Assembly: GCA_002633005.1 (NCBI GenBank)
Contig: NMRA01000514.1
Span: forward strand, 256,008 to 312,017
DNA length: 56,010 nt
Source: Phoronis australis
Taxonomy: Eukaryota > Animalia > Phoronida
Reading direction: 5' to 3'
Position numbers and translations under genes: made by a program. The notes below the pieces were generated by a model. That model was not told the DNA's origin. It made no database searches and saw only the letters and a list, made by a program, of their open reading frames with translations. This document shows, piece after piece, positions 598-51,800 of this stretch (the first letter of the stretch is position 1; every line of letters begins with the position of its first letter).

Positions 598-3500
598 GTA
601 AGTCCTCTGTTTTTGATACTAGGACTATGAAGTGTCATTTATACACCTAGTTGTAAGTACCTTATTGTATGTAGTACTATTGTCCTATTGTGTTCATTTG
701 TAAATACATTGTTGTATGTAGTACTGTTGTCCTATTGTGTTCATTAATTTGTAAATACATTATTGTATGTAGTACTATTGTCCTATTGTGTTCAGTTGTA
801 AGTACATTATTGCATGTAGTACTGTTGTCCTATTGTTTTCATTCATTTGTAAATACATTATTGTATGTAGTACTGTTGTCCTATTGTTTTCATTAATTTG
901 TAAATACATTATTGTATGTAGTACTATTGTCCTATTGTGTTCAGTTGTAAGTACATTATTGTACGTAGTACTGTTGTCCTATTGTGTTCACTTGTAAGTA
1001 CATTATTGTATGTAGTACTGTTGTCCTATTCTGCTCATTTGGGACCTTATCAATACGTCTGTGCATTTGGCCATATAGACAACTATGGATGTTACACTGT
1101 AGCTCTGTTTAAGTATAATTATGTTTTCTGAAAGTAACTGAAGAAGCTTTTACAGATTTCCCTTCTCAACTTCAATGTGTCATTAATTGAGTCACATGAC
1201 CCTTTTTATTAAAAATTTCTAAAAAGATAGCGAAGCAACAGTTTCAATATCATGACCAAATCCTAATTTGGTTTAAATCTTTTGAGATGAAATCTCCAAA
1301 ATGCTCTAACAGTTTTCAAAAATATCAGTTCTTTTTCATTTTACCCAAGTTTTTCACAGTAAACATGAAAGTGATGGACCTTCATGGAAAAGTACATCAT
1401 TTTAAAAGCATTATTCCTGATAGTGTAGAAGAGAAGAATTCTTAGAGCACACTATGCGAAAATTTCACATGAACAATTAAGCCATTTCTGAGATATGGCA
1501 CTCTGAAATTAATTCATTGGACATTTTTCTGGCATTCTACATAACCTTAAACAAGTCAAATGTTTGTTTGGATCAAATTTTTAAGCGTCATGAGTCCAAA
1601 ATAACATGCCCCATTCTCAAGTTGACTTGTTATTTTCTTTCAGACTTGTCGTTGGCTCGAAAGGTGGGTGAGCGGGTTGTAACCACCCTCCCAGCTTACA
1701 TCGCGGGTACCAGCGTTCACCTGAGCTCGTACAAACTTATCCAGGTGTTGACTATCTCTTTATTTAACATGTGGCACCTGAATTCTCAGCTGGAGCCAAA
1801 GAATCGCAAAGAGAAGACGAAGGAGTTGATTGGTCGGCTGGAGACATCTAAATCTATCGTCTTCTCCTTCATTGGTATGTAAACAGTTTGTGCAGTGCTT
1901 ATAGAGAACTCCCCAAACTAGGGAGAGGTTGTCTCATCAGTGCTGTCACTGCTTTCCATGAGCGTTCTTAGCACATCACTCTCTTTAAACCAGAGCAAAC
2001 TTAGCAAGGCAAGATTTCCTGTAGAGGTCGCTGCAAGCTATCTTTCTTGCTAATCTAGACTTAGTTGATCAACAGAATACAGTAAAGTTTCTTTAAATTG
2101 GGGCATATGGTGGAACAATAAAATTTTATTTTATCAAAAATTTCAATCAGAGTAAACAAGAGGACAATTTCACTTGATTATTTGAAAATTTTTCATAGTG
2201 CCACTGTCATCAATAAGCACAATATGAAATTTTGAACATTTTTGACAAAACATTAAAAAATGACAAATTTTGCCAACATTTTTGTTCGAATTTCAGGAAA
2301 CTGTATCGTAGTTGCAATAACATTACTTCTCTAACTGTATATACCCACATGCTGGCTTTAGTCTGAACCAGGTATCTTTGTTTTTGGAAGTGACCAGACG
2401 CAAGGTGTGATCGAAGTTTTATTGTAACATGTAAATAAGAATACCAGTTTCACTGTCAAATAACTGCTTTGTTCTTTTCGTTCACTAAAAATGAGGTTTT
2501 TAATTTCATAATGGCTCCAAAGCGAGATTTGTAATTGTGTCCAAGCAGATGTGGTTGAAATTTAAGAATACGTGACGTCACTCTCTCGTTTTTATTAATG
2601 GCGATAAAGATATAAGAAGGATCCTTCCACTTAAGTAATAGTGACCGTTATATCAGTGGGTCAAAAATGGCCAGTTTCTAAGCAAAACTAAATAAGAATT
2701 ATGTTGCGTCACAACCAGCCGCTAATACTTCCATTTTGGCCACAGTTTAATGATAGAAAACAAGACTTGTCTTATTTCATAACTCGATTTTTGTGCTTAC
2801 CAACATTCTACACTGTCATGCCATTGTGTGACATGGGATGTTCCAAGGTAATAGATGTATTAATTAAATATTGTTCAGAGGAGGCAGGGTGGCCTTGTGT
2901 GATAGGTACTGGCTTTCTTTACTCGAGGTCGTGAGTTCAAGTCTTGTTGGGCTACAATGCTAGACCCTTGAGTCAAGTTTTTAGCTCCTCTGCTGGGTTT
3001 TAACTACATATTATTACAGCACAAATTAAAATGGTTGCAGGTGATCAGTGCAATGGGCCCCCATGCACGGCCTGTGCACGTGTGTTACAACATGTACCAG
3101 ATGGCCTACAGTTATTTTTTATAAACAGTGTTCAATATTCTTGACTTAGTTCCTCTATTTGCCTCACAGTGTCTCTGATGGACAAGATCATTCACAGCAC
3201 ACCCAAACAGGAACAGCGGGCCAAGGACTACTTCACCCTTCCTTCTATCAAGCTCATACTGGAGTGGCTGCTTTCTGACCGACCCGCGCTCTCTGATCCT
3301 TTGCTCAGTGGCTCCCCCATGTGGCCAAATCTGTGTAAACTGTTGAACAACTTGCAGTTTCATTCGACGTCGAAGGAGAATCCATTTGACCCAAATAAAT
3401 GTAAGGAAAGGTTATTTCAATTTATTAAATCGTGTCATGTATGGTGATAGAGCTTTTGACGAGGACGAGGAAGAATGTTAATTTAAATGACACAAAATGA

Positions 3501-5728: not shown

Positions 5729-6273
5729 NNNNNNNNNNNNNNNNNNNNNNNNNNNNNNNNNNNNNNNNNNNNNNNNNNNNNNNNNNNNNNNNNNNNNNNN
5801 NNNNNNNNNNNNNNNNNNNNNNNNNNNNNNNNNNNNNNNNNNNNNNNNNNNNNNNNNNNNNNNNNNNNNNNNNNNNNNNNNNNNNNNNNNNNNNNNNNNN
5901 NNNNNNNNNNNNNNNNNNNNNNNNNNNNNNNNNNNNNNNNNNNNNNNNNNNNNNNNNNNNNNNNNNNNNNNNNNNNNNNNNNNNNNNNNNNNNNNNNNNN
6001 NNNNNNNNNNNNNNNNNNNNNNNNNNNNNNNNNNNNNNNNNNNNNNNNNNNNNNNNNNNNNNNNNNNNNNNNNNNNNNNNNNNNNNNNNNNNNNNNNNNN
6101 NNNNNNNNNNNNNNNNNNNNNNNNNNNNNNNNNNNNNNNNNNNNNNNNNNNNNNNNNNNNNNNNNNNNNNNNNNNNNNNNNNNNNNNNNNNNNNNNNNNN
6201 NNNNNNNNNNNNNNNNNNNNNNNNNNNNNNNNNNNNNNNNNNNNNNNNNNNNNNNNNNNNNNNNNNNNNNNNN
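5729..6273. other. Assembly gap (545 N)
   Basis: Run of N. Confidence 0.99.
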
Positions 6274-10387: not shown

Positions 10388-11416
10388 ACAACGAAAACAC
10401 AATTCACACAAGGCATTAAAAATATGATGCTAGTTTTCAACCACATTGCCGAAGAAACTGATTGAATTATAATACAACATGTAACCACTAAGACGGTTGT
10501 CATTATATCAGGTCATTCACTTGAGGTTATAAAGTGTAACACGAATAAATATTTTAATAGCAAACATTACTCAAAAGGCGATTGCTTGTTTCACATATTT
10601 ACAAAAGGAGTTTTACAACTTCCACCTTCTCCACAGAATACATTCATTGCAAATAAGATGGGAAGTCTTATGTTCAAGAGCTCAAAATCTCACAATTTGA
10701 AACCCCCAAACTGCACTTCTCACTGTATTGTTGAAGTTCCAGCAAACTCGTCAAAATCACTACAATTCATTTTCCGTTTAAACATATAATAAATGTTTAG
10801 AATTATGACTTTGTCTCATCCTTTTCGAAAATAAGAAATCTTTTGTTCATTCGTTTAGGTTTTTGTGTTTTGTATAGTGCACACGCTGTTTTTGACGCGC
10901 TGCGTCTTGAATAATGTCGTGGTACCCGAAATAACACTGTCGTGTGAGGGGTGAACCAAACCAATGAGCTATAGCTCATTGACCAAACTTATTGGGTGGG
11001 TCCGGACTATAGTGTTTACGTAATCTTTACTTTTGTGGTGAAGATTCACAGGACCAAGCATTGTGATTTAGTCTTGTCACATTTATCCCATTGTCAACCG
11101 TCGCATCAACATTATTGAGACGAAAATTTACAACACGTACTGTGTAGTACTTGATTATAATCAAACGATTTCAATTTCTAAAAAGACTATGAGATTCGAC
11201 ACTTTTACATGGGCAGCGCAGCACTGAAAATAAGTTGGGGCAAGAGGGCCCCAGACCCCGGTGGTGCACCGCAAATAGACAATGGGTGGCGCAACTTTGA
11301 AAAAGTGGGAGCTACAACACCTCAGCCACCCATGGTGCGGCGCCCGTGAGAGAAGTTGTGAATGGGAATAGCCATTGAAAAGGAATATATGAATATTTAG
11401 ATAACCAAACATTCCA
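10388..11416 (+). repeat. ~1-kb direct duplication, copy 1 (copy 2 at ~13250-14247)
   Basis: Near-identical sequence from CAACGAAAACACAATTCACACAAGGC to AAACATTCCA; divergence is higher in the last ~300 bp. Confidence 0.92.
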
Positions 11417-11804: not shown

Positions 11805-11903
11805 CGTATTGGGAGCTGTGGCATCGGCACCCTTTTTTAGAAGGAGTTCAATAACATCTAGCTTGCCACGCTTAGACGCGAAGTGCAGGGGCGTGTCGCC
11901 TTT
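11805..11903 (-). CDS. Ankyrin exon KGDTPLHFASKRGKLDVIELLLKKGADATAPNT (unique sequence, missed by the ORF track)
   Basis: ttgttgtag| acceptor, |gtaaga donor, 99 bp, close match to the ankyrin consensus. Confidence 0.88.
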
Positions 11904-14900
11904 CTACAACAAGCATTAAAACGACTGACAAACCATAAATATAATTACACTATTTCCCTGTGTTTGGTGAACAACTCGTGTAAATGAAAACAAGGTTGAC
12001 CTGATTAAAGTCAAAATGTCAAAGAATATTATCAAATCTAAAATTGAGTTCAACATGAAGCAGATATGATATCAAACATTATATGATTATTTCCATACAC
12101 ATTGTAAAAGCAAAAGGGAAATGTTTTAGAAGATTGTAACAACATTTTTGAAATGTCGTGCTCAAGATTGATAGGAAATAAAGTATGATCATATTATGGG
12201 AACCATGGTTTTATTATCAACGCACCTTTCCTTCTTTCCTAAACCTTAATAACGATATGTTATATATGACTCAAATAATGAAAGCTAACGGTGAAAAATC
12301 GAATTCAGCAGTTCCCTGAATGACACCCTATATGTACATTAACAGGGTTGATGTCCACAGTTCTTAGACATTCTTGATAATACGGAAAATGGTCAACATG
12401 CAAAACCCAAAAAACAAGCGTTGTGCAAGGCGAGCCAAACAGACGCGGTACAGGATGGAAGTATCAAGACACTAACACTTTTAAAACAGGGTTATGTAAT
12501 ACAATCACGTGACTCGTGTTCATGTCGCGGACGTTTGTTTGGAAACTTTCGGTTCGGTGTACAGTAACATAGGCGTCAATCCTTAGAACCTGAAGCACCA
12601 CCAGGGACATTTTTTTTCTATTGTGTGCCAAACGAAAACCACATAGTTATCCATAGGCGTTCTGTTGACACCTGATGGACCGTCGGTTGACCAGACTGAT
12701 GCTGCCATGCGTTTACAATATCGATTGTTGTCGCGTCAGAACGTTGGTTTGCATCTTAACAATACATGTACCTGAATCAAATATCAAGCGAAGATCGGTC
12801 TATACCCCGCCAACTGAATTCGGTCAACTTTTTGTCGCAGTGAGAATAGCCATCAGAAATCAATCTCTTGCGTTTCAGTAATACTTAATATGCACTCAGA
12901 TTTCAACTGACATTTATTCGACCACCTGAGCATACACTGTATGCAGTATATTTATTGAATACATTGCAATGAACATTACTCCTAAAGAGGAACAATCAGA
13001 ACGAACATGTTTAAGACCAGAAACATGTAAAGCATTGCAGATCAGTGGAATGCGACGAGTAACCAGGCACATGCTTCTATATCTGCTGTTTGGAAATACG
13101 GACATTTTCAAACTGAGGTGGGTCACATATACACGCATGCCTGGAGTTACATTTGCTAGCGCGGGTAGATATCTTGTGTATAAGTAGATGTGTTTTTTTG
13201 TGTTTCGTAACCATTTAACTCAACGCAAGGTTGTAAATACGATGAGATACAACGAAAACACAATTCACACAAGGCATTAAAAATATGATGCTAGTTTTCA
13301 ACCACATTGCCGAAGAAACTGATTGAATTATAATACAACATGTAACCAATAAGACGGTTGTCATTATATCAGGTTATTCACTTGAGGTTATAAAGTGTAA
13401 CACGAATAAATATTTTAATAGCAAACATTACTCAAAAGGCGATTGCCTGTTTCACATATTTACCAAAGGAGTTTTACAACTTCCACCTTCTCCACAGAAT
13501 ACATTCATTGCAAATATGATGGGAAGTCTTATGTTCAAGAGCTCAAAATCTCACAATTTGAAACCCCCAAACTGCACTTCTTACTGTATTGTTGAAGTTC
13601 CAGCAAACTCGCCAAAATCACTACGATTCATTTTCCGTTTAAACATATAATAAATGTTTTGAATTATGACTTTGTCTCATCCTTTTCGAAAATAAGAAAT
13701 CTTTTGTTCATTCGTTTAGGTTTTTGTGTTTTGTATAGTGCACACGCTGTTTTTGACGCGCTGCGTCTTGAATAATGTCGTGGTACCCGAAATAAGATTG
13801 TCGTGTGAGGGGTGAACCAAACTCATTGGGTGGGTCCAGACTATAGCGTTTACGTAATATTTACTTTTGTGGTGAAGATCCGCAAGACCACGCATTGTGA
13901 TTTAGTCTTGTCACTTTCATCCCGTTGTCAACCGTCACATCAACATTTTTGAGACGAAAATTCACAACTCGTACAGTGTAGTACTTGATTATGATCAAAC
14001 GAGTTCAATTTCTAAAAAGACGATGAGATTCGACACTTTCCCATGGGCGGCGCAGTACTGAAAAACGTGGGGGCAAATGGGCCCCAGACCCCTGTGGTGC
14101 ACCGCAAATAGACCATGGGGGCGCAACTTTGAAAAAGTGGGTGCAACAGCACACCAGCCACCCTTGATGCGGGGCCCGTGAGATTTTGTGAATGGGAATA
14201 GCCATTGAAAAGGAATATAGGAATATTTTGATAATCAAACATTCCAAATTATAGTTAATAACCAAAAAGAACGAGTCTGGTTGACCCTGATGATGACATC
14301 TATTTTGTGTGAGAATCAGTTTGTATTTCAGCATGAAAGGTTTGCACTTAACCAATTTGCCACCAGGTGAGTGTTTCTACTCAAAAACACGTTCAATACA
14401 TTAGGCCTATGTCTACCTGCAAGCCCTCGTGGCATTAAATTTGAAACACAGTTGGTGTACACATGTGACTACCTTTGTTGTAAAAAAGGGAAAATTTGCT
14501 AGAATAATGAATTCCTAAAAGCTTTCTCAACAATCAAATTTTAAAGACGCTGAACTGTTATATTTGTTCTTTCAGTGGACAAATTTGTCATGGGTCTATA
14601 CTGTTCACATCTACGTCACACAGAGAGGTATTGAAATGTGACAAACGTTTCCATTCCGGTCAACGTCATGATAACCCGTTTATTACGCAGTCCACATCTG
14701 ATATTTTCCCAACAACTTTTACCGTCAGACATATTTAGTCTTTGAATAATTGTTTCGAGGGATGTCGATAATTTTGTCATCGGGTAAATGATTACTTCCC
14801 ACAATAAAAACTAGCAAACTTATGCCCTGTGTAGGGGCGTGTTTCCATTATGCAGTAAGAGAACAAAAATGAAGTAATTTCGGTCAGCAATACACATAGC

Positions 14901-17900
14901 GACTCGGGTGGATCAACAGTGCGTTACGTTTTATATTTCCAGTTCAAAACTTCACCATCAGTTGCATAATTATGAAGTGGTTGACTCAACAGAGCGCGAC
15001 TACATGTACACAGACTTATTATAAACTGGAGCGAGATCTCTTCAATGCCGGTCTGATTTGATATTGTCACGTGATTGAAACGGTGACTAAATATCACAAC
15101 TCGGTGTTATATATTACAAAAGAGAGACATTCATTTCGTGTAGTTAGCGCTATGGAAATGCAAGTAAAAACCAACCCATTGTACAACTCCAGTTTTTAAT
15201 TGTTTAAAGTCGCGTGCACGTCACGTCACGCGCGGTAGAATGCAACCAGAAATGTCAACGTTTACGACAAAATCATATATTGGTGATTAATTGATTTAAA
15301 CATCGAATAATTCAGCCTAGCCACGCGTTGAACGTTCATCTGTGTTGTATAACCACTCGTTCAACCAAACGACCAGCTTGTCATTAATTACCTTATCACG
15401 GACATTCACGTTGGCCCCGTGTTGGATGAGACACTGTACGACGGCTGTATGACCCCACTCTGCTGCCCTGTGCAGCGGTGTCTGACCATCATATGTAATA
15501 TATAATGGAGATGTGTGAATGGACGATGAGCAAATTAACATCCACTGGGGAATGTGAACTTGCAAAGTGACATAAATGAATCATTACTGACCCCTCTAAG
15601 ACGCTATAATACTTGTAATGATGTCATAGTTTTAGAACAAACAACATAGCGTGTTCAGTGTTTCCAGTCTTTGAATGCACAAGCATGTAAAGCAGACGAC
15701 ATTTGACATTATTTAGCGACATTAAATTGTCAACATCAACGTCAACAAAATGTTATTTATAGTTTCAATACTCTTTTGTTTAAACAACTAGTTCAACCAA
15801 ACAACCTGTGTGTCATTACTTTCCTCATCACCTACATCTACACTGGCCTTGTTGGCCAACAGCACCCCCACAGTCTGTGTATGACCACCCTCTGCTGCCA
15901 CGTACAGCGGTGTCCGGTCCAACTATGTAATATATAATGGAGATGTGTGAAAGGACGATCAACTTAAAGAGCAAATCAACATACACGGGGGAATGTGAAC
16001 TTGTAAAGTGACTTAAATAAAACATTACTGACCCCTCTAAGACGCTACAATAATTGTGGTGGTTTTTACTGTTTTTTTAGAACGCTGCTACAATAATTGT
16101 AATGATTTTATAGGTTTAAAAAACACTACGAAGCTGGAAAATCTTTGACGGTTCTCCTACTGAAAGCAGACGACACTTCATTTGACATTGTTTAGCGACA
16201 TTAGATTGTGAAAAATATCAACAAAACGTTCCTTTATAGTTTCAATATTCTTTTGTTTAAACAACTTCAACCAAACAACCTGTGTGTCACTACTTACCTT
16301 ATCACGTACATCTACACTGGCCTCGTTGGCCAACAGCGCCCCCACAGTCTGTGTATGACCACCCTCTGCTGCCACGTACAGCGGTGTCCGGTCCAACTAT
16401 GTAATACATAATGGAGATGTGTGAAAGGACGATCAACTTAAAGAGCAAATCAACATACACGGGGGAATGTGAACTTGTAAAGTGACTTAAATAAAACATT
16501 ACTGACCCCTCTAAGACGCTACAATAATTGTGGTGGTTTTTACTGTTTTTTTTAGAACGCTGCTACAATAATTGTAATGATTTTATAGGTTTAAAAAACA
16601 CTACGAAGCTGGAAAATCTTTGACGGTTCTCCTACTGAAAGCAGACGACACTTCATTTGACATTGTTTAGCGACATTAGATTGTGAAAAATATCAACAAA
16701 ACGTTCCTTTATACTTTCAATATTCTTTTGTTTAAACAACTTCAACCAAACAACCTGTGTGTCACTACTTACCATATCACGTACATCTACACTGGCCTTG
16801 TTGGCCAACAACACCTCCACTGTGTCTGTATCACCACGCTCTGCTGCCACGTACAGCGGTGTCCGGCCAAACTATGTAATATATAATGGAGATGTGTGAA
16901 TGGACGATCAACGCTCAGAGCAATAAAACATACACGGGGCAAAGTGAACTTGTAAAGTGACACAAATTAAACATCACTGAATCCTCTAAGACGCTAAGAT
17001 ACTCGTGATGAATTTTACAGATGACTTTAAAACGTTGCTACAATACATGTAACGGTTTCATAGTTTTAGAACACACAACGGAACCTGTTCAGCGATTCCC
17101 GTCTTTTAGGACTCTTCTGCGGAAAGCAGACGATACTTAAATTGACGTTGTTTAAAAATATGAAATTGTGAAAAATATCAACCACATGTCATTCAAAGTT
17201 TTTTACAATCCTCTGTGTAAACAACAACTTCAACCAAACAACCTGTGTGTCACTACTTACCTCACCACGTACATCTACACTGGCCTCGTTGGCCAACAGC
17301 GCCCCCACAGTCTGTGTATGACCACCCTCTGCTGCCACGTACAGCGGTGTCTGGCCCAACTATGTAATACATAATGGAGATGTGTGAATGGACGATCAAC
17401 GTAAAGAGCAAATCAACATACACGGGGGAATGTGAACTTGTAAAGTGACTTGAATAAAACATTACTGACCCCTCTAAGACGCTACAATAATTGTGGTGGT
17501 TTTTACATTTTTTTAAACGCTGCTACAATACTTGTAATGATATAGTTTTAAAAAACACTACGAAGCTGGAAAATCTTTGGCGGCTCTCCTACTGAAAGCA
17601 GACGACACTTCATTTGACATTGTTTAGCGACATTAGATTGTGAAAAATATCAACAAAATGCTCCTTTATAGTTTCAATATTCTTTTGTTTAAACAACTTC
17701 AACCAAACAACCTGTGTGCCACTACTTACCTTATCACGTATATCTACACTGGCCTTGTTGGCCAACAACACCTCCACTGTGTCTGTATCACCACGCTCTG
17801 CTGCCACGTACAGTGGTGTCTGGCCAAACTACATGTATGTAATATATAATGGAGATGTGTGAATGGACGATCAACGCTCAGAGCAATAAAACATACACGG

Positions 17901-20900
17901 GGCAAAGTGAACTTGTAAAGTGACACAAATTAAACATCACTGAATCCTCTAAGACGCTAAGATACTCGTGATGAATTTTACAGATGACTTTAAAACGTTG
18001 CTACAATACATGTAACGGTTTCATAGTTTTAGAACACACAACGGAACCTGTTCAGCGATTCCCGTCTTTTAGGACTCTTCTGCGGAAAGCAGACGATACT
18101 TAAATTGACGTTGTTTAAAAATATGAAATTGTGAAAAATATCAACCACATGTCATTCAAAGTTTTTTACAATCCTCTGTGTAAACAACAACTTCAACCAA
18201 ACAACCTGTGTGTCACTACTTACCTCACCACGTACATCTACACTGGCCTCGTTGGCCAACAGCGCCCCCACAGTCTGTGTATGACCACCCTCTGCTGCCA
18301 CGTACAGCGGTGTCTGGCCCAACTATGTAATACATAATGGAGATGTGTGAATGGACGATCAACGTAAAGAGCAAATCAACATACACGGGGGAATGTGAAC
18401 TTGTAAAGTGACTTGAATAAAACATTACTGACCCCTCTAAGACGCTACAATAATTGTGGTGGTTTTTACATTTTTTTAAACGCTGCTACAATACTTGTAA
18501 TGATATAGTTTTAAAAAACACTACGAAGCTGGAAAATCTTTGACGGCTCTCCTACTGAAAGCAGACGACACTTCATTTGACATTGTTTAGCGACATTAGA
18601 TTGTGAAAAATATCAACAAAATGCTCCTTTATAGTTTCAATATTCTTTTGTTTAAACAACTTCAACCAAACAACCTGTGTGCCACTACTTACCCTATCAC
18701 GTACATCTACACTGGCTTTGTTGGCCAACAGCACCTCCACAGTCTTTGTATGACCCTGCCATGCTGCCCTTTGCAGCGGCGTCACGTCCCACTATGTAAT
18801 ATATAATGGAGATGTGTGATTGGACGATCAACGTTTAGAGCAAATTAACATACACGGCGGAATGTGAACTTGTAAAGTGACATAAATAAAACATTACTGA
18901 CCCATCTAACACGCTAAAATACGTGTGGTGGTTTTTACAGGTTTTTTAAAACGTTGCTACAATACTTGTAATGATTTTAAAGTTTTAGAACACACTACGA
19001 AGCCGATAAACTCTTGGCGGCTCTCCTACTGAAACCAGACGACACTTAATTTGACATTGTTTAGCGACATTAGATTGTGAAAATTATCAAAAAAATGTTC
19101 CTTTATAGTTTCAATATTCTTTTCTTTAAACAACTTAAACCAAACAACCTGTGTGTCACTACTTACCTCACCATGTACATCCACACAGGTCCTGTTGGCC
19201 AACAACACCTCCACTGTCTGTGTATGACCACTCGCTGCTGCCAAGTGCAGCGGTCTCTTGTCGAACTATGTAATATATAATGGAGATGTGTGAATGGACG
19301 ATCAACGTTTTGAGCTAATTAAGTATCAGTCCACGGATCCACCGACCACTGTACAGCCAACAAGCGGCAAGGTGGGGGGTCAGCCATTCAGATCCATGTT
19401 TAGTCTGATAAATCACATTAGGGATGAGAGAAAATGGGTGAAGTATGACACCACAAAGTTTGGTGGTTTAGGAGATACAAGGGAAGTGTTCTGGGGGGCA
19501 AAATGAGGCAATTTCTTGGTGTGGAATGAGTCATTTTTGACCAAATTTTCTACTCCAGTTTCTGCTTCAAACAGAATCGTTTCTGAAAAATTTTGATGTC
19601 ACATGATTGGTTCATGACCAATGTCAGTAAAAACGGCACCGACACTGCAATATCGGTTACCATGGTAACACTGGAACTGCTTCCGTGGACTCACATTTCC
19701 GTCTTGTGAAAAACCAGCAGTAAGCTGTACCCTTATAGCGAAGCTGCCCCCACGAGAAAACTAAAAATAATAACATGGGCATGTAGAAGACTCCATGCCC
19801 TTGAAATTAATACAATAAAAACTTTGTCAGCCCTTCAGGCAGGCTTGGTAATAGGTGTCTGAATTTCACTATTTTCAGACCGCGTATGTGTATTTGTCAT
19901 GTTAAACCAATCACTAGTTGTGCGCCGTTTCTACGCATTAATATGCCGTGGTATAATACAACAATTAAAACAATTGGTTTGCTTAAATGTTTTTAATTAA
20001 TTTAAGGACACTAGCATTTCCAAATAAAATATGAAATTATACTAAATGTGTTTGTCCAATTCGTCTGAATACCAAACTAAAGCTTACAATGCGTTAGTTG
20101 AATGATGGCTGACCTGAAGTGCGGGTTTGCGAATTTATCTATTTATCTGGCACTGCCAGTCGCATCGAATGTGGTATTTCCTCAAATTGCGGAGAGAAAC
20201 AACTTTGGAAACTCTTGGGAAATGCACAAGGTATAGAGCGAGACATTTGAGCACCTTATAAGAGTGCGTGGAGCTGATGTGGAGATGGAACGTGTCCTCC
20301 TGAGAAGTAGTCTGTCTCAGTGTTTGCCTCGGAGGCAGGTGTGCAGGAGCTACATAATCTACCGTATTAGATGCACTTAACCGAATCATCGTTACAACAC
20401 TCGAGATATATTGGCGTCGCCAAAGACACTGAGAACATCCACTGCACACTAGGGGAGAAATCTGACAGAGGTCTGACAAATGACCAAAGACGTTAAGTCA
20501 AGGTTCAACGTCCAACTTCGTGTGAGCTCAGGTAGGAATCACTAAACTCCAGGGTCCGACCCTGAGGATTCGTAATTGATGTGAATTTATGTTTCCGCAT
20601 TTTATTTACCATTATAGATTTTTGTTTGTAAATGGGTATATATCACAGAAATTTGAGACCCTGTTGCAGTTAGGCTGGTTTTGTTAACTTATCTTTCTGC
20701 CTGGGTTGTAAACCCATATTCTGTCCAGGAGGTAATAAGTTTTGATTTAGACCATTTACCTCTATAAACCTTTGCTCAGTTTGTTCCTTATCCAGATGGG
20801 AAGTGATTTCTGGAATTGTAGCTAATTGACAGTTTGCTATTCCTTGAGACCATGCTGTGTGTATAAAATCACACACTATTGGTGTGGTCTCTAGCAATTG

Positions 20901-23900
20901 CATATTGCCAGTTCTTTCAAAGTTCTGAAATTGCTCAAAGTGACCTGGAAGTAATACCTATTTCGTGATGGTAAAATGTCTTAATCAAAAGTTGTTTTAT
21001 GTGATTTTAGGCGAGTTTATGCCCACTTCAAATGATTTTTTGTTGCAGTACTGAAAAGTGTTGGCACATTAGCTTTGGTGGCTCCTTGTTTTTTTGGCGA
21101 ATTGACCATTTTATGGTTCCCATGGGTAATTTTGTTACTGGTTTAGTATGTATGTACAACTGTAATCGTAGGGCAATTGTAATGCAAACCATGTTGCAAA
21201 AGTATTTTTCATGACCATTTCATTGTAAAATGCTGCCTAATTGGAACCGACAAGCCAATTTTTCATTTTGTGGTGGTTAGTTTTGATAAGAACATTGATG
21301 TGGTAAATACAGCTACCTCAAGTTTGTGAAGAAGAGATTTCCAGTGTTGTCAGCGATATTGCGAAATCACTTTTTCGCAATAAGACTACATCACCTTAAA
21401 TGTAATTCCCTGACTTTATGAACTTTGTGTGATTGACTCTGTCCTGTAGCAATTATAGTGTTGAAAAGAGCTGGAAGGCAATTTTTTATTAGAGTCATAA
21501 CATTTGCACTTTTGACTGTACAGTTATTTTTGCATTGTATTCCGAAAACATATTTTGTAGTACACAAGTCTCTAGTTGGTATTTTATATTTTTTCACAAG
21601 GAATATTTTCAACTTAGATGAGTTGTGTGGGAGGTAGACAATTTTCAAATAAGATAATGAATAAAATTGTCAAACATTGTTTTATTTTTTAGATGTGTGA
21701 TCTTCCAATAAATTATTACTTTTAAAAAAACTGTGCAGAATTTGATTTTCTCTCTTTATTTGAAGGAGAATAAATCCATAAACCTGCATTGTCTAGAAAT
21801 TTTACTCAAACTACATATTACAAGGTTGGGGATTGGAATCTTAATACAACAGAGTCTGAACCCGTACCATGAGCAATACAACACAATACACGGATTAAAA
21901 ATTTGGTGTTTAGGTTCCACGGAAAGGATTCGTGTGCGCGGTAATAGTTACTAAGGTGCGTGGTCATTGTTTGTGGATACTTTGGGATTTCTCTTCTGTG
22001 GTCATCCACGGGAAACCTGGTCGCATAGAGAACAATAGATTAGCATCTTCATTGTTCCCGTTGTTATAATAAAGATATAATGAGCACTTATCGGCAACGG
22101 TCTGATGTACGCAAGGTTCTATATCCATGCGACCTGTGTTGTTCCATCCAACAATGACACAACAAAGGAAAACAATGATAGGACCGATGGGCGAAAAACA
22201 TGCGGCGAGTTGCCACGGACAGTGGTGGAGTTTGTCTTGTCATTCGATTGTTTTTAGAGAACTGCAAACCCGGTACTTCGTCAGGAAAATTTCTGCGGTC
22301 TGTTGTTTTAAGACGTGGGAAAAATTGCGGTCATGCAACCAAACTTATCATTCATTTGATATTACAATGCATTGCATGAACATTTGATCAACAGAAAATC
22401 TGACTTGAATATGTGTGAAGAAATACCCACGAGGAAATTGTAAAGTTAAACAACTGTAAATCAAAATAACCTACATTTGTCGAGTTCATGTCTAACCCTG
22501 TTCACTGTGGAGGACATAATCGGCTTTTTACAAAATGGGTCCATGTATGGTATTTAGGGGTACTGTAGCCCTAAGTGGTAAGTAGTAAAACGTTCAAAAC
22601 ATTCAGGAGGAACTAACTAGTTGCAAAATATCGAAAAACATGAAGGACAATCGGATTTTACGGTGCTCACGCATCGGTCTCAGATATATGAAAATTTCTC
22701 ATTTTAGTACATTTGAGGTACCAAAATGTATAACTAATAAACTGGCTGACAAAGTTTTTATTTTATGAAATGAAAGTAACATGTTTTGTGAACATTTTGG
22801 CTGAGTTTCATTCTCATAACAGTGGGGGCAGATTTGGTACAGCAGTGTACTGAACACAACCTCAAAATGGCATAACGGGNAACTCTAGACACTTCTGTGT
22901 ATTCATTAGTTTATATGCCCTCATGCATTAAACTTGAGTTGTTGCTAACCTGAATTTTAATTTTTGCAATCCCTAAAAATCTTGCACAGTTTTGGTGATC
23001 GGTACCTTGCATTAAATTAAAATCAATTTTTAACATATAATAATGCCACACGCGGTGGAGTGCAACCAGAAATGTCAGCGTTTACGACAAAATCACATAT
23101 TGGTGTTTAATTGATTTAAACATCGAATAATTCAGCCTAGCCACGCGTTGTACGTTCATCTTTGTTCTATAACCACTCGTTCAACCAAACTACCAGTTTG
23201 TCATTAATTACCTCATCACGGACATTCACGTTGGCGCAGTGTTGGATGAGACACTGTACGACGGCTGTATGACCCTCCCTTGCTGCCCTGTGCAGCGGTG
23301 TACAGTCATCCTATGTAATATATAATGGAGATGTGTGAATGGACGATGAGCAAATTAACATCCACGGGGGAATGCGAACTTGCAAAGTGACATGAATGAA
23401 TCATTACTGACCCCTCTAAGACGCTATAATACTTGTAATGATGTCATAGTTTTAGAACAAATAACATAGCGTGTTCAGTGTTTCCAGTCTTTGAATGCAC
23501 AAGCATGTAAAGCAGACGACATTTGACATTATTTAGCGACAATTAATATCAACAAAATGTTACTTTATAGTTTTAATATTCTTTTGTTTAAACAACTAGT
23601 TCAACCAAACAACATGTGTGTCATTACTTACCTTATCACTTACATCTACACTGGCCTCGTTGGCCAGCAGCACCTCCACTGCCTGTGTATGACCACCCTC
23701 TGCTGCCACGTACAGCGGTGTCTTGCCCAACTATGTAATATATAATGGAGATGTGCGAATGGACGTTTAGAACAAATTAACATACACGGGGGAAAGTAAA
23801 TTTGTAACGTGACATAAATAAAACATTACTGACCCCTCTAAGACACTACAATACTTGTAATGAATTGTTACAGGTGATTTTAAAACGTTGCAGTAACAAC

Positions 23901-24357
23901 AGAACATGCTGTGGACGTCAATGCAAGAAATTACTCAGCGCCTCCATAACTTCTCAGCGAAACCTCCATGTTGTGTTCATAAACATCTTTACTGGCTTCT
24001 TTTTAATATAAATTTGTAATGTTGAATGGACAAAATGAATCAAGGTGAAGCTGACAAATACGTTGTCGACGTGATTCAAACGTCACTGTTTCTTAAGACA
24101 CAAGCACTAGGTACAGATTGAGAAATACATGTGGAAATCACGAGCAATAAAATGTGTATTTACACAACATATTTTGTTAAACTTCAGATAGCTTACAACT
24201 TTTGTAGCAAAGATATTTTTGTCTTAATTCCTAAATCTCCCCAAGTAGTTTTTATTACCCAGTCTGGCACGTCCACATGGGCACCACTCTCCAGCAGCAA
24301 CCTCACCACCTCCGTTTTGCCCCGCTCTGCTGCCTCGTGTAGTGCCGTCTGGCGGTA
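11805..24357 (-). CDS. Ankyrin-repeat protein gene built from thirteen 99-bp phase-0 exons, one repeat per exon; two exons have non-canonical splice sites; termini uncertain
   Basis: Exons in transcript order: 24259-24357, 23632-23730, 23212-23310, 19167-19265, 18693-18791, 18224-18322, 17730-17828, 17261-17359, 16773-16871, 16298-16396, 15824-15922, 15392-15490, 11805-11903. Each encodes a 33-aa xGxTPLHxAAxxGHxxxVxxLLxxxAxVDxxD ankyrin unit. Confidence 0.88.
13250..14247 (+). repeat. ~1-kb direct duplication, copy 2
   Basis: Matches 10388-11416, offset ~2.86 kb. Confidence 0.92.
14820..14849 (-). pseudogene. Decayed ankyrin exon start NGNTPLHRA* with dead acceptor
   Basis: Pyrimidine tract tttttgttctcttactgcAT, then aat gga aac acg ccc cta cac agg gca TAA. 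Confidence 0.6.
15392..15490 (-). CDS. Ankyrin exon DGQTPLHRAAEWGHTAVVQCLIQHGANVNVRDK, acceptor mutated (catAT)
   Basis: Frame and donor intact; AG>AT relative to the paralogous exon 23212-23310. Confidence 0.6.
15824..15922 (-). CDS. Ankyrin exon LDRTPLYVAAEGGHTQTVGVLLANKASVDVGDE, donor mutated (GAAAGT)
   Basis: Frame and acceptor intact; GT>GA at the donor position used by sister cassettes. Confidence 0.6.
16298..16396 (-). CDS. Ankyrin exon LDRTPLYVAAEGGHTQTVGALLANEASVDVRDK
   Basis: catag| acceptor, |gtaagt donor, 99 bp. Confidence 0.85.
16773..16871 (-). CDS. Ankyrin exon FGRTPLYVAAERGDTDTVEVLLANKASVDVRDM
   Basis: catag| acceptor, |gtaagt donor, 99 bp. Confidence 0.85.
17261..17359 (-). 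CDS. Ankyrin exon LGQTPLYVAAEGGHTQTVGALLANEASVDVRGE
   Basis: catag| acceptor, |gtaagt donor, 99 bp. Confidence 0.85.
17730..17828 (-). CDS. Ankyrin exon FGQTPLYVAAERGDTDTVEVLLANKASVDIRDK
   Basis: catgtag| acceptor (6-bp insertion relative to sister units), |gtaagt donor. Confidence 0.82.
18224..18322 (-). CDS. Ankyrin exon LGQTPLYVAAEGGHTQTVGALLANEASVDVRGE
   Basis: catag| acceptor, |gtaagt donor; identical to 17261-17359. Confidence 0.85.
18693..18791 (-). CDS. Ankyrin exon WDVTPLQRAAWQGHTKTVEVLLANKASVDVRDR
   Basis: catag| acceptor, |gtaagt donor, 99 bp. Confidence 0.85.
19167..19265 (-). CDS. Ankyrin exon FDKRPLHLAAASGHTQTVEVLLANRTCVDVHGE
   Basis: catag| acceptor, |gtaagt donor, 99 bp. 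Confidence 0.82.
19328..19691. mobile_element. Putative small non-autonomous element with a 10-bp inverted repeat (AGTCCACGGA ... TCCGTGGACT)
   Basis: Starts where cassette homology stops abruptly; no TSD recognised. Confidence 0.35.
19724..22843. mobile_element. Decayed transposon-like insertion splitting the ankyrin array
   Basis: Unrelated to the cassettes; imperfect inverted ends GCTGTACC..CTGCCCCCA / TGGGGGCAG..GGTACAGC; broken Cys/His coding-like remnant near 20380-20470 (LEIYWRRQRH*EHPLH). Confidence 0.4.
23212..23310 (-). CDS. Ankyrin exon DDCTPLHRAAREGHTAVVQCLIQHCANVNVRDE
   Basis: catag| acceptor, |gtaatt donor, 99 bp. Confidence 0.85.
23632..23730 (-). CDS. Ankyrin exon LGKTPLYVAAEGGHTQAVEVLLANEASVDVSDK
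   Basis: catag| acceptor, |gtaagt donor, 99 bp. Confidence 0.85.
24259..24357 (-). CDS. Ankyrin exon YRQTALHEAAERGKTEVVRLLLESGAHVDVPDW
   Basis: ttctttctgcag| acceptor, |gtaata donor, 99 bp. Confidence 0.88.
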
Positions 24358-24553: not shown

Positions 24554-25884
24554 AATAACTCTTGGTTGCAATGGATCACCTTTTTATGAAGAAGGTTGCG
24601 TTGCCCTTCTACTTTGTTTGCTAATATCAATAGTGAAACCAGTAATTCTCAGAGCAAATACGTGATATGTTCATTAAAATTATCGACACTTTTATCAAAG
24701 TCCTTTAGATTGGTTGTAGCTAAGATGGGCTATCGCTCTTAGTCAACATGCCCTTTATATTCACAATTAAATATCATACATGTACATGTAGTTAAGAGAC
24801 CAATTTCACGAAAGAAAACAATTCAACTATTTTTTTTCTTTTTAACTAGCTAAATAGGACGAAATTTAACTATCTTGAAACTGATTTTGACACAAAATAT
24901 TATGTAAGAGACAACAACGTTGAAGCCAAGTGTACCAAAGCTGCGATTATAGCTAAAAATTTTGTAGCCATCCGGTTCGTACTCGTTAGCAGATCTATTC
25001 GAAACCAATCCTTGTCATCCTTCTTGTCAAAATTTCTGTACAGAAAAATCAATTAATCATGCAGTTCCAATTTCGACGCAAATCCAATCTCATGTAGGCT
25101 ACCGAAACTTGAAACGACAGTGGTCTGGCCAGGCGAAGCGTTGCGTTTAAAAAGAACTTTGCCGGCCAGCTTTCACGTGTACACGCGATAAATTGATACA
25201 TTCGCCTGTTCTTGAATATATTTAAAGGGACATTTCCTTATCACAAGCCACCAATTAGAAACCATATCTAATCTTAAAAAAGTGGCTGCAATTTGAATTT
25301 GAAGACATCCGTTTGACTCCTTTTACGCGCAGGTGTTTAAAATGGTATGTTTCGACATTGATTCCAAATTTTATTCTGTAACAGAAAGTTAGAGACGATT
25401 TACCTCATTCAACATTTCGTTTTACATGGAGGGTAAAGAGGCCACATTCCCTTTCTACTTAACAGCAAAGTCGTCTTTTTAAAGAACCCGTTTTGTAAGA
25501 ATGTTGAAAAGCAAAATCTCGAATTCGTTTGATGCCACCGAAGGAGTAACACTCGCGACATGCATGATGGGGTCACGTGGCGTTTAGAGGCTAACATATA
25601 CATGTAGATACAAGGCACGTATTCCGTGATAAAGGAACAAAATCAAATCACGCGATAATGGAAACCCACACGGAATGGGTATTACATTGGAGTTTTTATA
25701 TTACAAAAAAACTAATAACTGACAACGTAATCAGCATAAGAAACTCTTCTTTTTTGAAATTTGCACTGAATTTTTTACTGGAGATTCCATCTTAATAAAT
25801 TGAACACAGAGTGATACAATTTCTGCCACCACATCGATAACATTATATGCAGTTAGGTTCAACACGTCATTTGGTTAGGAGAAC

Positions 25885-48365: not shown

Positions 48366-48820
48366 TCAGGTCCATTTGTACAGATTTAGAGTTCCCTCGC
48401 GCGTACGTACAATACTGTCACCATAGTCATTAATGCGACTACTTAACTGAGCTAGATATAAATAACCATCACGGTGAAACGACCGCCACATTATGCACTC
48501 GCTTGCATTCAGTTGCGCATGCTCATAGAAACGACCATCGGTGCCACGTTTATAAATCACTGACGAGTTGTTGAACTGGGGTGTCACATAATATAACTGA
48601 TTGCCAGCTTCAAAAAATGTTGCATATCGGTTGCTATGGTTGGGCAGAGTTTCCAAGTAGTCAAATCGCCTGGCTGTCTGATTCCACTTGAAAATGGTCG
48701 GTGACTGTTTAACACTGTCATCAGTGACAGCCATGTTTCGGACTCCGCTCTTAGTTCTAAATGTAGTTGGAGCAGTTTTTCCGCCAAAAATCTTGGGCAG
48801 CGTTTGATAAGTACTCCATT
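48366..48820 (-). CDS. LamG-EAR gene terminal exon, about three EAR/EPTP repeats
   Basis: ttttcattgcag| acceptor; frame WSTYQTLP...PTIFKWNQTARRFDYLETLP...SVIYKR..GRFYEHAQL..YLYLA..LNLYKWT-TGA. Confidence 0.88.
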
Positions 48821-51800
48821 CTGCAATGAAAATGGTGACGTCACATAAAAAGTGTCACTTTTAAGAAAACTAGTTCTGTTGAGCTGTGAGAACACACAGA
48901 CACATACTAGTGTTGCCTTGTCCAAACTAAGTAAACCACTCTTCTTGTAAAAAGTCTACTCGCAACATTTACGCAGCTTGACATATCTGGTGCCTGTGCT
49001 GCCACCTTCGGTGTAGATACCAAACAGGGACATGGCCTGAAATACAGCTCAGCTACAGTAGGCCCCTTTGGCAAACAAAGACTGGGGGACTGCATGTGGT
49101 CTGCAGCAATTCTGTGAGGCTAATGACCACATACAATAGCGTCTCACACACTTTTTGACAAAATGCCAATTCAAAATATTGTTTTTGACAAAATGTTCTC
49201 GCAAAAGGTTTAATTTGGGAGGTGAAAATTTACAAAGAATTCAAAGGATTGTCACACAGCTACAGAATTCCAGAGGATTTTCAACATTTTTGCAATGTCT
49301 TGCTGAACTTGTAAAACTCAATTGAGATTATTTATTTTGTCAGTATGATGCATGTACATCTTATCGAACTGTCCTAGAATTCATTTGAAACGACTAATAA
49401 AAAACAGCGCCTACCGAAAGGTGACATCTGTGAAACTAAACTAAAAATGACCACACTTTTAAACATATTAATTACCGATTACTCCCCATGGTCGACAAGA
49501 AAACAATTCGTTTAATATTTTTCCTAATTACTTAAAAATCGCTTTATGTTCTCATTTTGCTTTGTCGACCTTATCATTGTAATACTGAATGCTGTCACTT
49601 AGGACATGTATCACACCTTTTGTAACACATCGGACTTCTTTCTAGCTTCAAATTTCCTTTTAGTGGTGATAATTATGTGCCGACTTTCAGTAATGAAACA
49701 AATCATTCCCAATAGAAAGCCACGTGCCTTGCTCTTTGACTGAAGTTTACATGCGCGAGAAGGAAAGAATTGAATCGAAGGAAATACCAGAATGTTCGAA
49801 ATAACGCAATGAATGCACTACCTGTAACTAGTGAATGGCCATACAGAAAATGCACTAGATATAACAGGTGAATGGCTATACAGACAATGCACTAGATATA
49901 ACCGGTGAATGGTTATACAGACAATGCACTAGATATAACCGGTAAATGGCTATACAGACAATGCACTAGATATAACCGGTGAATGGCAATACAGACAATG
50001 CACTAGATATAACCGGTGAATGGCTATACATACAATGCACTAGATATAACCGGTGAGTGGTTATACAGACAATGCACTACATATAACCGGTGAATGGCAA
50101 TACAGACAATGCAGTACTTATACCAGTGAATGGCTATACTGACAATGCACTACATCTATGCAGTGAATGGCAAACAGACAATGCACTACACATAACAGTG
50201 AATGGCTATACAGAAAACGCGCTACATTTAACCAGTGAATGTCAAGAACAAACTCCATGGGAAGTGAACGCTAAAGTTTACTCGAGGTTAAACTCCGGAT
50301 CCATTATTTAGGAATCCGGTGCATGCCACGCTTTGAGTAAACTGTCACCTTTCATGGCGTTTTCAGGTGCTGGCTTGTAAGTAAAGTTTGGTGGTTTAAT
50401 TTTTAAAACCATCAAAGCAAAATAGGGCTCGGTCCTTACTGCAAACAGTATATACCTTTGTTCCATTCCTTTTTAGCCTGCACCGGGCTCAAAACATAGT
50501 CGAAATACACCACCTGGCGGATTTCACCCACCATGTATAGACTCATGCAGCATTGCCTGTGAACATTTACAATTACGTATGCAAAATGGCAGAGCAGAGG
50601 TACACTAACACTACAAATCCCTTGTCTCAAAGATTTTAGCATTTCAATCATGGAGTATCCAGTGATTTTAATGTTCAACTATATTTGATTCTTTTCTCAA
50701 CAGAATGAATAATAGGAACTCTAAACATCTTATTTTTACCAATCAAGAAACCCTTCTCAACTCATATTTGCTTAATCATTTAATAAGTTATCCCCATGAA
50801 TGTATCTAACGCTAGGCTTAATTTGTTAACATACAGTTGGGCCCTCACGACTTTTCATTAATGCTGGAACGGCATGTGAATCGTTTATATTGACGCTCGT
50901 TTACTGGATATGCAGACTCTTTGCTTTCATCAATGAGAATATATGTGGATCCTCATCGTGTAGTCGACGCGTTGAATAACATTGAGTTGTGAATATAGGA
51001 TCACAAACACTCCATGGCAATGATAGCCTTTAGTGGAACAACTACACTGTATCTATAGTGACCATATCTAGTGTACACTGAATTTACACATTAAGTGACA
51101 TATATTGTTAGCAAATACCTCAAACAAAAAAAAAAACACAGCGGACGAATGCTCTCTTCGGTTTTGTTAATTTGCGCCTTTTTTGTGCAACTGATATTCC
51201 GGAATCAAGTTGACATATTTTACCTCAGTGTCTTACCTAAGTACACCTTATGGGCTGTATTGTCACTACTCATGGTGGGCGCTGGATCTGATTGGTTGTT
51301 TTGTTCAAGTTCACCATCCAAGTAAAATGTAAACCTGAAAAAACAGCTTGGTTGAAATTCACGGATCTTAAAGTCCCTATAAAATGAGCCAACTGCCTTT
51401 TAGATATGTTAAATACATGTACTTTTGTGCAACACATCTTTGTTTCGTTTTATTCCACACAACCACTAACTAATTACTACGCATTTTGTGCCCCCCATAT
51501 TATGTGCCCCCATCAGAAATCCCTTTTATTCTCTCGACGAATCACAGTAGACTGGCCTATTGACATCATCGTTGAGAACCAGCAACACATTACCGCGCTA
51601 ACCACAACCTGTAGTGAGCACCTGATCAGCTGCTGGGACAGTAAAAAACAAAGTAGTTTTGCTCAAGGAACGTCACCAATTAGAAACATCGCCGACGTTA
51701 GGCATCAATGTCGACTGATAATGCAATATTACTAAGCAAAACAATGGTGTCAGGCAAAGCACCCTTCGAACCGAACAGCGGCGTAGATCTCGGATAGGGT

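Follow-up and report, generated by a model that had tools for sequence, protein, structure and literature searches.

Single-repeat ankyrin exons in a Phoronis australis gene and fast change at their predicted binding-face codons

A tandem array of single-repeat ankyrin exons

We focus here on an ankyrin-repeat gene of the phoronid Phoronis australis, which lies on the minus strand of a 56,010-nucleotide stretch of contig NMRA01000514.1 (GenBank assembly GCA_002633005.1, positions 256,008 to 312,017), referred to below as the window and numbered from its first letter. The window holds 13 ankyrin exons of this gene, each of 99 bases and in phase 0 (A, B1, C1, B2–B9, C2 and E; Table 1), and in the B exons the codons assigned to the binding face have changed several times faster than the introns. 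The array shows the arrangement that marks the shuffled-exon receptors of brown algae, namely one repeat per exon, constant phase and tandem order, and the constant phase most likely allows any number of cassettes to splice in frame. Five exons were scanned with Pfam, and all five match PF00023 (Ank) at 32–49 bits against a curated cut-off of 21.1. The array seems to be N-terminal in the protein; a motif scan found no further repeat start, and no inverted exon was found on the opposite strand.

The B cassettes recur with their introns every 470–490 bases or so. A recent two-cassette duplication gave rise to the pairs B4/B6, which differ by one substitution in 469 bases and have identical exons, and B5/B7, which differ by four. 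In terms of residues, the differences per 33 amount to none for B4/B6, three for B5/B7 and four for B4/B8, and to 10 for the neighbours B4 and B5.

Table 1. Features of the ankyrin gene and its array, listed from the 5' end of the minus strand
Feature	Position	Strand	Basis
Candidate first coding exon of four codons, starting with ATG; GT donor in phase 0	25404..25415	-	Read from sequence; beyond RNA-compared stretches
Exon A, first repeat, AG/GT intact	24259..24357	-	Pfam Ank E=2.4e-9; RNA depth; X5 joint to B4-like exon
Exon B1, intact	23632..23730	-	Splice-site reading; Pfam
Exon C1 (first exon of the original prediction), AG/GT intact	23212..23310	-	Pfam Ank E=6.6e-11
Duplicated segment spanning a B exon, its intron, a C exon and a piece of the following intron	23047..23891 with 15227-16088		89.6% identity
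Non-cassette DNA, ~3.7 kb between C1 and B2, likely repeats	19310..23040, limits approximate		No other match in window
Exon B2, splice sites intact	19167..19265	-	Sequence reading
Exon B3, intact	18693..18791	-	Sequence reading
Exon B4, intact, identical to B6	18224..18322	-	Sequence comparison
Exon B5, intact, sister of B7	17730..17828	-	Sequence comparison
Exon B6, intact	17261..17359	-	Sequence comparison
Exon B7, intact	16773..16871	-	Sequence comparison
Exon B8, intact	16298..16396	-	Sequence comparison
Exon B9, donor GA instead of GT	15824..15922	-	Sequence reading
B9-C2 intron, both splice sites non-canonical, likely retained	15491..15823	-	X5 contigs cross both ends
Acceptor-side element, 37 bases, common to B and C cassettes	15491..15527	-	96% identity vs 61% for B/C exons
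Exon C2 (second exon of the original prediction), acceptor AT, donor intact	15392..15490	-	Pfam Ank E=6.2e-13; X5 contig; joint to E
Remnant of a dead ankyrin exon (D): AT acceptor, stop after nine codons	14820..14849	-	Skipped by joint 11902-15391
Exon E, intact and divergent; the last repeat found	11805..11903	-	Pfam; RNA joints

Rates of change at the predicted binding face

Alignment to solved DARPins sets the register, in which exon codon n is repeat position n+2, and the binding face was assigned by this register. The randomised set of the DARPins we take to be repeat positions 2, 3, 5, 13, 14 and 33, that is, exon codons 33, 1, 3, 11, 12 and 31. These six test codons were fixed in advance, and the test was repeated with the set given for ANK-N5C in the available text of PMC4308713 (repeat positions 2, 3, 5, 10, 13 and 33); the accessible part of PMC8229355 locates DARPin binding on the concave face. 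Steps were counted by parsimony over eight B cassettes, the C1/C2 pair being excluded and B2 left out for having too little alignable intron.

The six face codons accumulated 20 steps at 18 sites (1.11 per site) and the intron 57 steps in 184 columns (0.31 per site), so that the face codons changed 3.6 times faster (p=1e-5), and they still did so 3.3-fold (p=4e-5) when only intron away from splice sites was used (45/134). Framework codons showed 0.315 steps per site at first and second positions and 0.22 at third positions (6/27; face versus third positions, p=1e-4). When six of the 33 codons were permuted, the excess was significant with the DARPin set (p=0.0002) and with the ANK-N5C set (p=0.0025). 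Site models, run with our own M1a/M2a code on a fixed tree with scaled branches and on eight B exons (B6, identical to B4, was dropped), gave a likelihood-ratio statistic of 18.3 (p=1e-4) and an omega2 of 6.6, with a posterior above 0.9 at codons 1, 2, 3, 7, 8, 12, 16, 31 and 33. Positive selection at the binding face, a property of the brown-algal arrays, is thus found here as well, with the face placed by the DARPin register, and fast change is confined to codons 1–3, 7–8, 11–12, 16, 25, 31 and 33.

All four substitutions between the sister cassettes B5 and B7, in 488 bases, fall in the exon (p=0.0016), and three disjoint sister pairs of B cassettes together differ at 8 of 297 exon bases as against 3 of 1134 intron bases (p=0.0003), by single-base changes of which seven of the eight are non-silent. 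Incompatibility affects 23 of the 55 informative pairs of sites among the exons, and recombination or recurrent change among the B exons is evident.

The C1/C2 pair

The original prediction for this locus had compared exons C1 and C2, and our recount agrees with its figures: 12 differences in 99 exon bases (23212–23310 against 15392–15490), 5 in 230 bases of adjacent intron, and six changed codons, all non-silent (exon codons 2, 3, 11, 12, 25 and 33 in the minus-strand reading), most with multi-nucleotide changes, namely five of the six with two or three. Such clustering of 12 changes in six codons or fewer is itself unexpected (p ~3e-5), and the 12 bases may thus represent as few as four events. 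The roughly 5-fold excess of exon over intron change holds on these numbers (Fisher p=0.0005), but the intron used is the most conserved stretch of the duplication; its remaining intron shows 11/165, 7/90 and 22/159 differences, and the ratio becomes 2.6-fold (12/99 versus 23/485, p=0.009) or 1.7-fold (versus 45/644, p=0.10) according to the intron included. Likewise, silent differences are indeed lacking, but not significantly so (p ~0.21 for six codon events, 0.35 for four), and the Nei–Gojobori estimates are pN 0.135 and pS 0.076.

Five of the six changed codons had been placed at the binding surface. We count instead four in the DARPin set and three in the ANK-N5C set (PMC4308713); codon 2 is a neighbouring position of the turn, and codon 25 belongs to neither set. 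Even so, the six DARPin-type codons, with 18 bases, take 8 of the 12 differences and the remaining 81 bases take 4 (p=8e-5), or, at the codon level, 4/6 against 2/27 codons have changed (p=0.005); with the ANK-N5C set the division is 6/18 against 6/81 bases (p=0.007). Those remaining 81 bases diverge like intron (4.9% versus 4.7%, p=1.0).

The reading placed on these counts had been diversifying selection or targeted micro-conversion of exons against homogenised introns. Selection is upheld for the binding-face codons, by data independent of C1/C2, but not for the exon as a whole, in which about one-third of the codons are fast. Recombination among exons is indicated by the incompatible site pairs, while its targeted form is unproven. 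Special homogenisation of introns fails, the intron changing at about the framework rate (0.31 versus 0.315 changes per site) and introns differing freely among paralogues in the reads. The observation is thus partly confirmed and its interpretation partly supported, and the independent tests have strengthened it.

Collapsed or mis-polished repeats could also make introns look alike and exons different, and assembly collapse had been named as what would undo the comparison. Single Ns and a scaffold gap occur in the window, B4 and B6 are nearly identical, and the best DNA run contains only 40% of the sampled words. Collapse is ruled out for C1/C2, however, by substitutions and a 13-base indel between their introns and by a contig of read set X5 that matches C2 with its AT acceptor exactly over 92 bases; the reads, moreover, vary at the same codons. 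An artefact of this kind is therefore extremely unlikely, and doubt remains for the copy number of B4–B7 only.

Expression and a wider family

The RNA is from three raw runs labelled with the same species, about one-fifth of each being sampled. RNA covers the exons in the orientation expected of minus-strand transcripts, and most reads are less than 95% alike, so that paralogues or other alleles are their main source. Joints in RNA link B-like to B-like exons, with letters that differ at codons 33 and 1, and, in X5, exon A to a B4-like exon, which could reflect a paralogue or else exon skipping, akin to the alternative splicing of repeat exons that marks the brown-algal receptors. A further joint runs from a C2-like exon to E, skipping D (depth 104.9 in X5; two reads in X10). 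In one loose end of X5 an E-like exon is followed by another exon, which does not occur in the window at three mismatches or fewer. Between C1 and B2, at 19310–23040, RNA depth on both strands exceeds exon depth with many differences, and this DNA likely consists of transcribed repeats or mobile elements.

Among the 40 best-supported variants listed for reads over 15290–15650, exon C holds 15 and the intron 25. Eight of these 15 lie in codons 3, 11, 12 and 33, two in codon 8 and three elsewhere, and two are silent; the eight fall within the 18 DARPin-type bases of the 99 (p=0.002). Many paralogous transcripts thus vary at largely the same codons as the cassettes. In X3 the summed depth of DNA contigs rises from 151–176 at the flanks to about 1,400–2,300 on the C exon and to 20,630, more than 100-fold above the flanks, on the acceptor element, which points to C exons in the tens and cassettes in the hundreds, although summed depth is no copy number. 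The gene is probably one of a large family of recognition proteins that diversify fast.

A rival explanation is programmed diversification, in which conserved intron elements on both sides of an exon would serve as handles for targeted swapping of exons or for micro-conversion limited to them, whether in germ-line or somatic cells, and would draw on a pool of hundreds of cassettes, some of them dead. The flanks of B and C cassettes are 96% identical over 37 bases upstream and 81% over 31 bases downstream, against 61% for the exons; the depth of the upstream element, the confinement of the B5/B7 differences to the exon and the varied junction letters in RNA point the same way. Yet the element overlaps splice-signal positions and homogenisation accounts for it, intron sites near splice sites are only slightly slower than distant ones (0.24 versus 0.34), no exon was found inverted, the longer variant blocks have no local template, and DNA and RNA do not come from one matched individual. 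We hold such a programme to be very unlikely. Local template switching, considered as the source of the two longer variant blocks, was rejected, there being no copy within 60 bases.

Splice lesions and the fate of this copy

Three lesions affect three adjacent exons at the 3' end of the array: the GA donor of B9, the AT acceptor of C2, and the AT acceptor and stop of D. The array thus contains inactivated repeat exons, as the brown-algal arrays do. The dead acceptors of D (14850) and C2 (15491) both read CAT where CAG is expected. Position 15491 is one of the five intron differences between C1 and C2, and the original prediction overlooked that it turns the C2 acceptor from AG to AT. The lesion is real, since the 92-base contig of X5 (15430–15521) spans it with no difference to the window, whereas in X1 and X3, which represent one other sample, nearly all depth at this position is C or a one-base gap; it looks haplotype-specific.

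Reading through the B9–C2 intron leads to a stop after 11 codons, at 15788–15790. A second contig of X5, of 406 bases (15498–15902; depth 424; two differences, one of them unplaced), crosses the B9 donor, and bins over intact introns have a depth of only 0–1.4 in X5. The B9–C2 intron is likely retained, which fits the contig if X5 is RNA, itself a guess; X10 also has 124–173 reads in paralogous cassette introns, which weakens the specificity of intron retention. A cryptic in-frame AG nine bases inside C2 was considered as a rescue acceptor and is used by none among the joints listed. In this haplotype the array is in decay at its 3' end: with the intron likely retained, translation would stop early, after no more than 11 repeats, and the product is probably truncated, if there is one at all. 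Translation would not reach C2, and the C1/C2 differences would mostly predate that loss. Because one of its members has lost its acceptor, C1/C2 is a poor test pair.

Surroundings of the gene

On the plus strand, an open frame at 3145–3444 contains an EST1 DNA/RNA-binding domain (PF10373, E=2.5e-5) and converges on the ankyrin gene; presumably it is an exon of an SMG5/6/7-type gene, and a word-based homologue search with the frame gave no match. Upstream, on the same strand as the ankyrin gene, EPTP repeats at 48369–48854 (PF03736, E=6e-11) belong to a separate gene. A rearranged local duplication lies upstream of the ankyrin gene, with blocks of about 1.3 kb present twice at 87–89% identity (25885–27169/30956–32228, 27236–28497/33120–34381 and 29673–30946/34739–36010), and exon E is flanked by a 1 kb repeat of 92% identity (10388–11416 and 13249–14246), a part of which, near 14056, attracts many outside reads. 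An inverted pair of 68% identity (6974–7883/39375–40335), probably old copies of one repeat, brackets the ankyrin gene. Downstream of exon E, a 545-base gap of Ns (5729–6273) beside a simple repeat could hide 3' exons; a tandem repeat with a 37-base period occupies 49812–50245.

Interpretation

These data are best explained, and in our judgement probably so, by an expressed family in which one-repeat ankyrin cassettes are mixed by recombination while selection diversifies codons predicted to face the ligand. Unequal recombination or crossing-over would copy whole cassettes and exchange pieces of them, and duplication and conversion would keep introns and framework codons alike. New or borrowed variants of the beta-turn and inner helix, favoured through altered binding, would spread faster than neutral ones and leave multi-base blocks at these codons. 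By analogy, the protein may be the sensor end of an intracellular recognition receptor, likely an immune one.

Relaxed constraint with ordinary conversion would call for no advantage at all: young copies would drift, surface codons would tolerate change, and older paralogues would donate multi-base blocks in short conversion tracts. This copy carries three splice lesions and a dead exon, its framework non-silent sites change at the intron rate, C1/C2 can be read as four events in 99 bases, and codon 33 occurs commonly in either of its states in the DNA of the other sample (220.8 of a depth of 436.3 in X1); relaxed purifying selection, along with positive selection, is moreover general in young repeats according to the available text of PMC5120217. 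Relaxation, however, caps the rate at neutral, yet the six codons run 3.3–5 times above intron and silent sites, and neutral conversion would not keep hitting one small set of codons in both kinds of cassette, B and C, as well as in the reads. We thus regard relaxation and conversion on their own as unlikely.

Several points count against selection on a receptor family. First of all, the rate evidence is uneven: B6/B8 shows no exon excess (4/99 versus 12/370), and the pooled test gives p=0.046 when this pair replaces B4/B6 and B8/B9. Recombination and multi-base mutation inflate site-model tests, and framework first and second positions evolve at the intron rate, so that purifying selection looks weak and relaxation contributes. 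Second, if adjacent codons changed together, C1/C2 has only four events per 99 bases, about the intron rate, and the variant table, which comprises the 40 best of 68 rows, includes silent and framework changes. Finally, no signalling domain was found at Pfam curated cut-offs in 174 minus-strand frames of 42 or more codons (150 + 24) between 3.8 and 47.6 kb, or in a 175th frame, so that the receptor role is drawn from analogy, and searches yielded no close protein relative, the best match having 21 of 33 identities.

Invertebrates live without antibodies, and the way in which they reach diversity of binding is an open question. An expanded, exon-modular ankyrin family whose variable positions are those that are randomised in engineered libraries would be the parallel, in an animal and with ankyrin repeats, to the brown-algal leucine-rich repeat (LRR) exons and the fungal NLR repeats, and its introns provide a built-in neutral clock, which repeats made of coding sequence only do not have. 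The value of this single locus is limited by its damaged look and by a signalling end that was not found. The animal might also keep, across its genome, hundreds of exchangeable one-repeat ankyrin cassettes flanked by conserved intron handles and swap or micro-convert them into a natural DARPin-like receptor repertoire, with dead exons such as C2 and D as donors and with possible differences between the cells of one animal; this we consider quite unlikely.

Comparison with known systems

A word-based homologue search with a B exon and its in-frame intron gave no match, a profile search returned generic long ankyrin proteins only, and the Atlas returned generic ankyrin clusters only. Of ten top profile matches looked up, seven were examined; five have four or more in-register repeats, and all five vary at the same positions. 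Internally similar arrays occur in abalone, amphioxus and mosquito proteins, three of them fused to caspase-nSTAND3, GT4 or death-trypsin domains. The abalone proteins XP_048241358.1 (caspase-nSTAND3-ANK) and XP_048247938.1 and the amphioxus proteins XP_078583816.1 (ANK-GT4) and XP_078582891.1 (ANK-Death-trypsin) have internally similar repeats, as here, with a mean entropy of 0.92–2.07 at the same positions against 0.19–0.52 elsewhere. The similarity to them is generic (at best 21 of 33 identities), and their effector domains were not found in the window.

In the literature searched, which left most subscription papers outside, no paper deals with animal single-exon ankyrin cassettes under selection. 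The accessible portions of the sources describe variable ankyrin ends in animal conflict proteins (PMC8195603) and concerted evolution as rare in animal repeats (PMC5100051). Engineered libraries, so far as the available texts on ANK-N5C (PMC4308713) and DARPins (PMC8229355) go, share with this array a variable beta-turn and first helix, a constant scaffold and distinct end repeats; the array, in contrast, is natural and slower, has extra variable codons (2, 7, 16 and 25), and its framework drifts.

The fungal NLR sensors with highly internally conserved ankyrin (ANK) repeats, such as Podospora Pa_3_8560, resemble the array in the concerted evolution of similar repeats, in selection on positions of the beta-hairpin and inner helix, and, on the fungal side, in frequent pseudogenised alleles (PMC4986451 and PMC13449251, in their available parts). 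The fungal repeats exceed 85% identity across 100 or more residues; in the array some pairs come as close (B4/B6, B5/B7, B4/B8), but the neighbours B4 and B5 differ at 10 of 33 residues. Repeat-number polymorphism between individuals is a further mark of the fungal sensors; the contigs of the read sets are shorter than the array. Here, on the other hand, each repeat is spliced in from a cassette that carries an intron, a word absent from PMC4986451, and the array is seemingly N-terminal, with no match to NACHT or NB-ARC before the repeats on the minus strand up to 47.6 kb.

The ROCO LRR and NB-ARC TPR exons of the brown alga Ectocarpus (PMC3341825 and PMC11378527, as far as their accessible text describes them) likewise encode one repeat per exon at constant phase in tandem arrays, harbour, in their introns, dead exons that have stops or have lost splice sites, and show positive selection on the concave face. 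They differ in being algal LRR exons of 72 bases in phase 2, whereas those of the present animal are ankyrin exons of 99 bases in phase 0, with no opposite-strand exon found; neither ROC-COR nor NB-ARC was found in the minus-strand frames of 42 or more codons scanned between 3.8 and 47.6 kb, although short exons, the gap of 545 Ns or loss could hide one. The locus is not classed as a member of the brown-algal or the fungal family; it works like the sensors of both.

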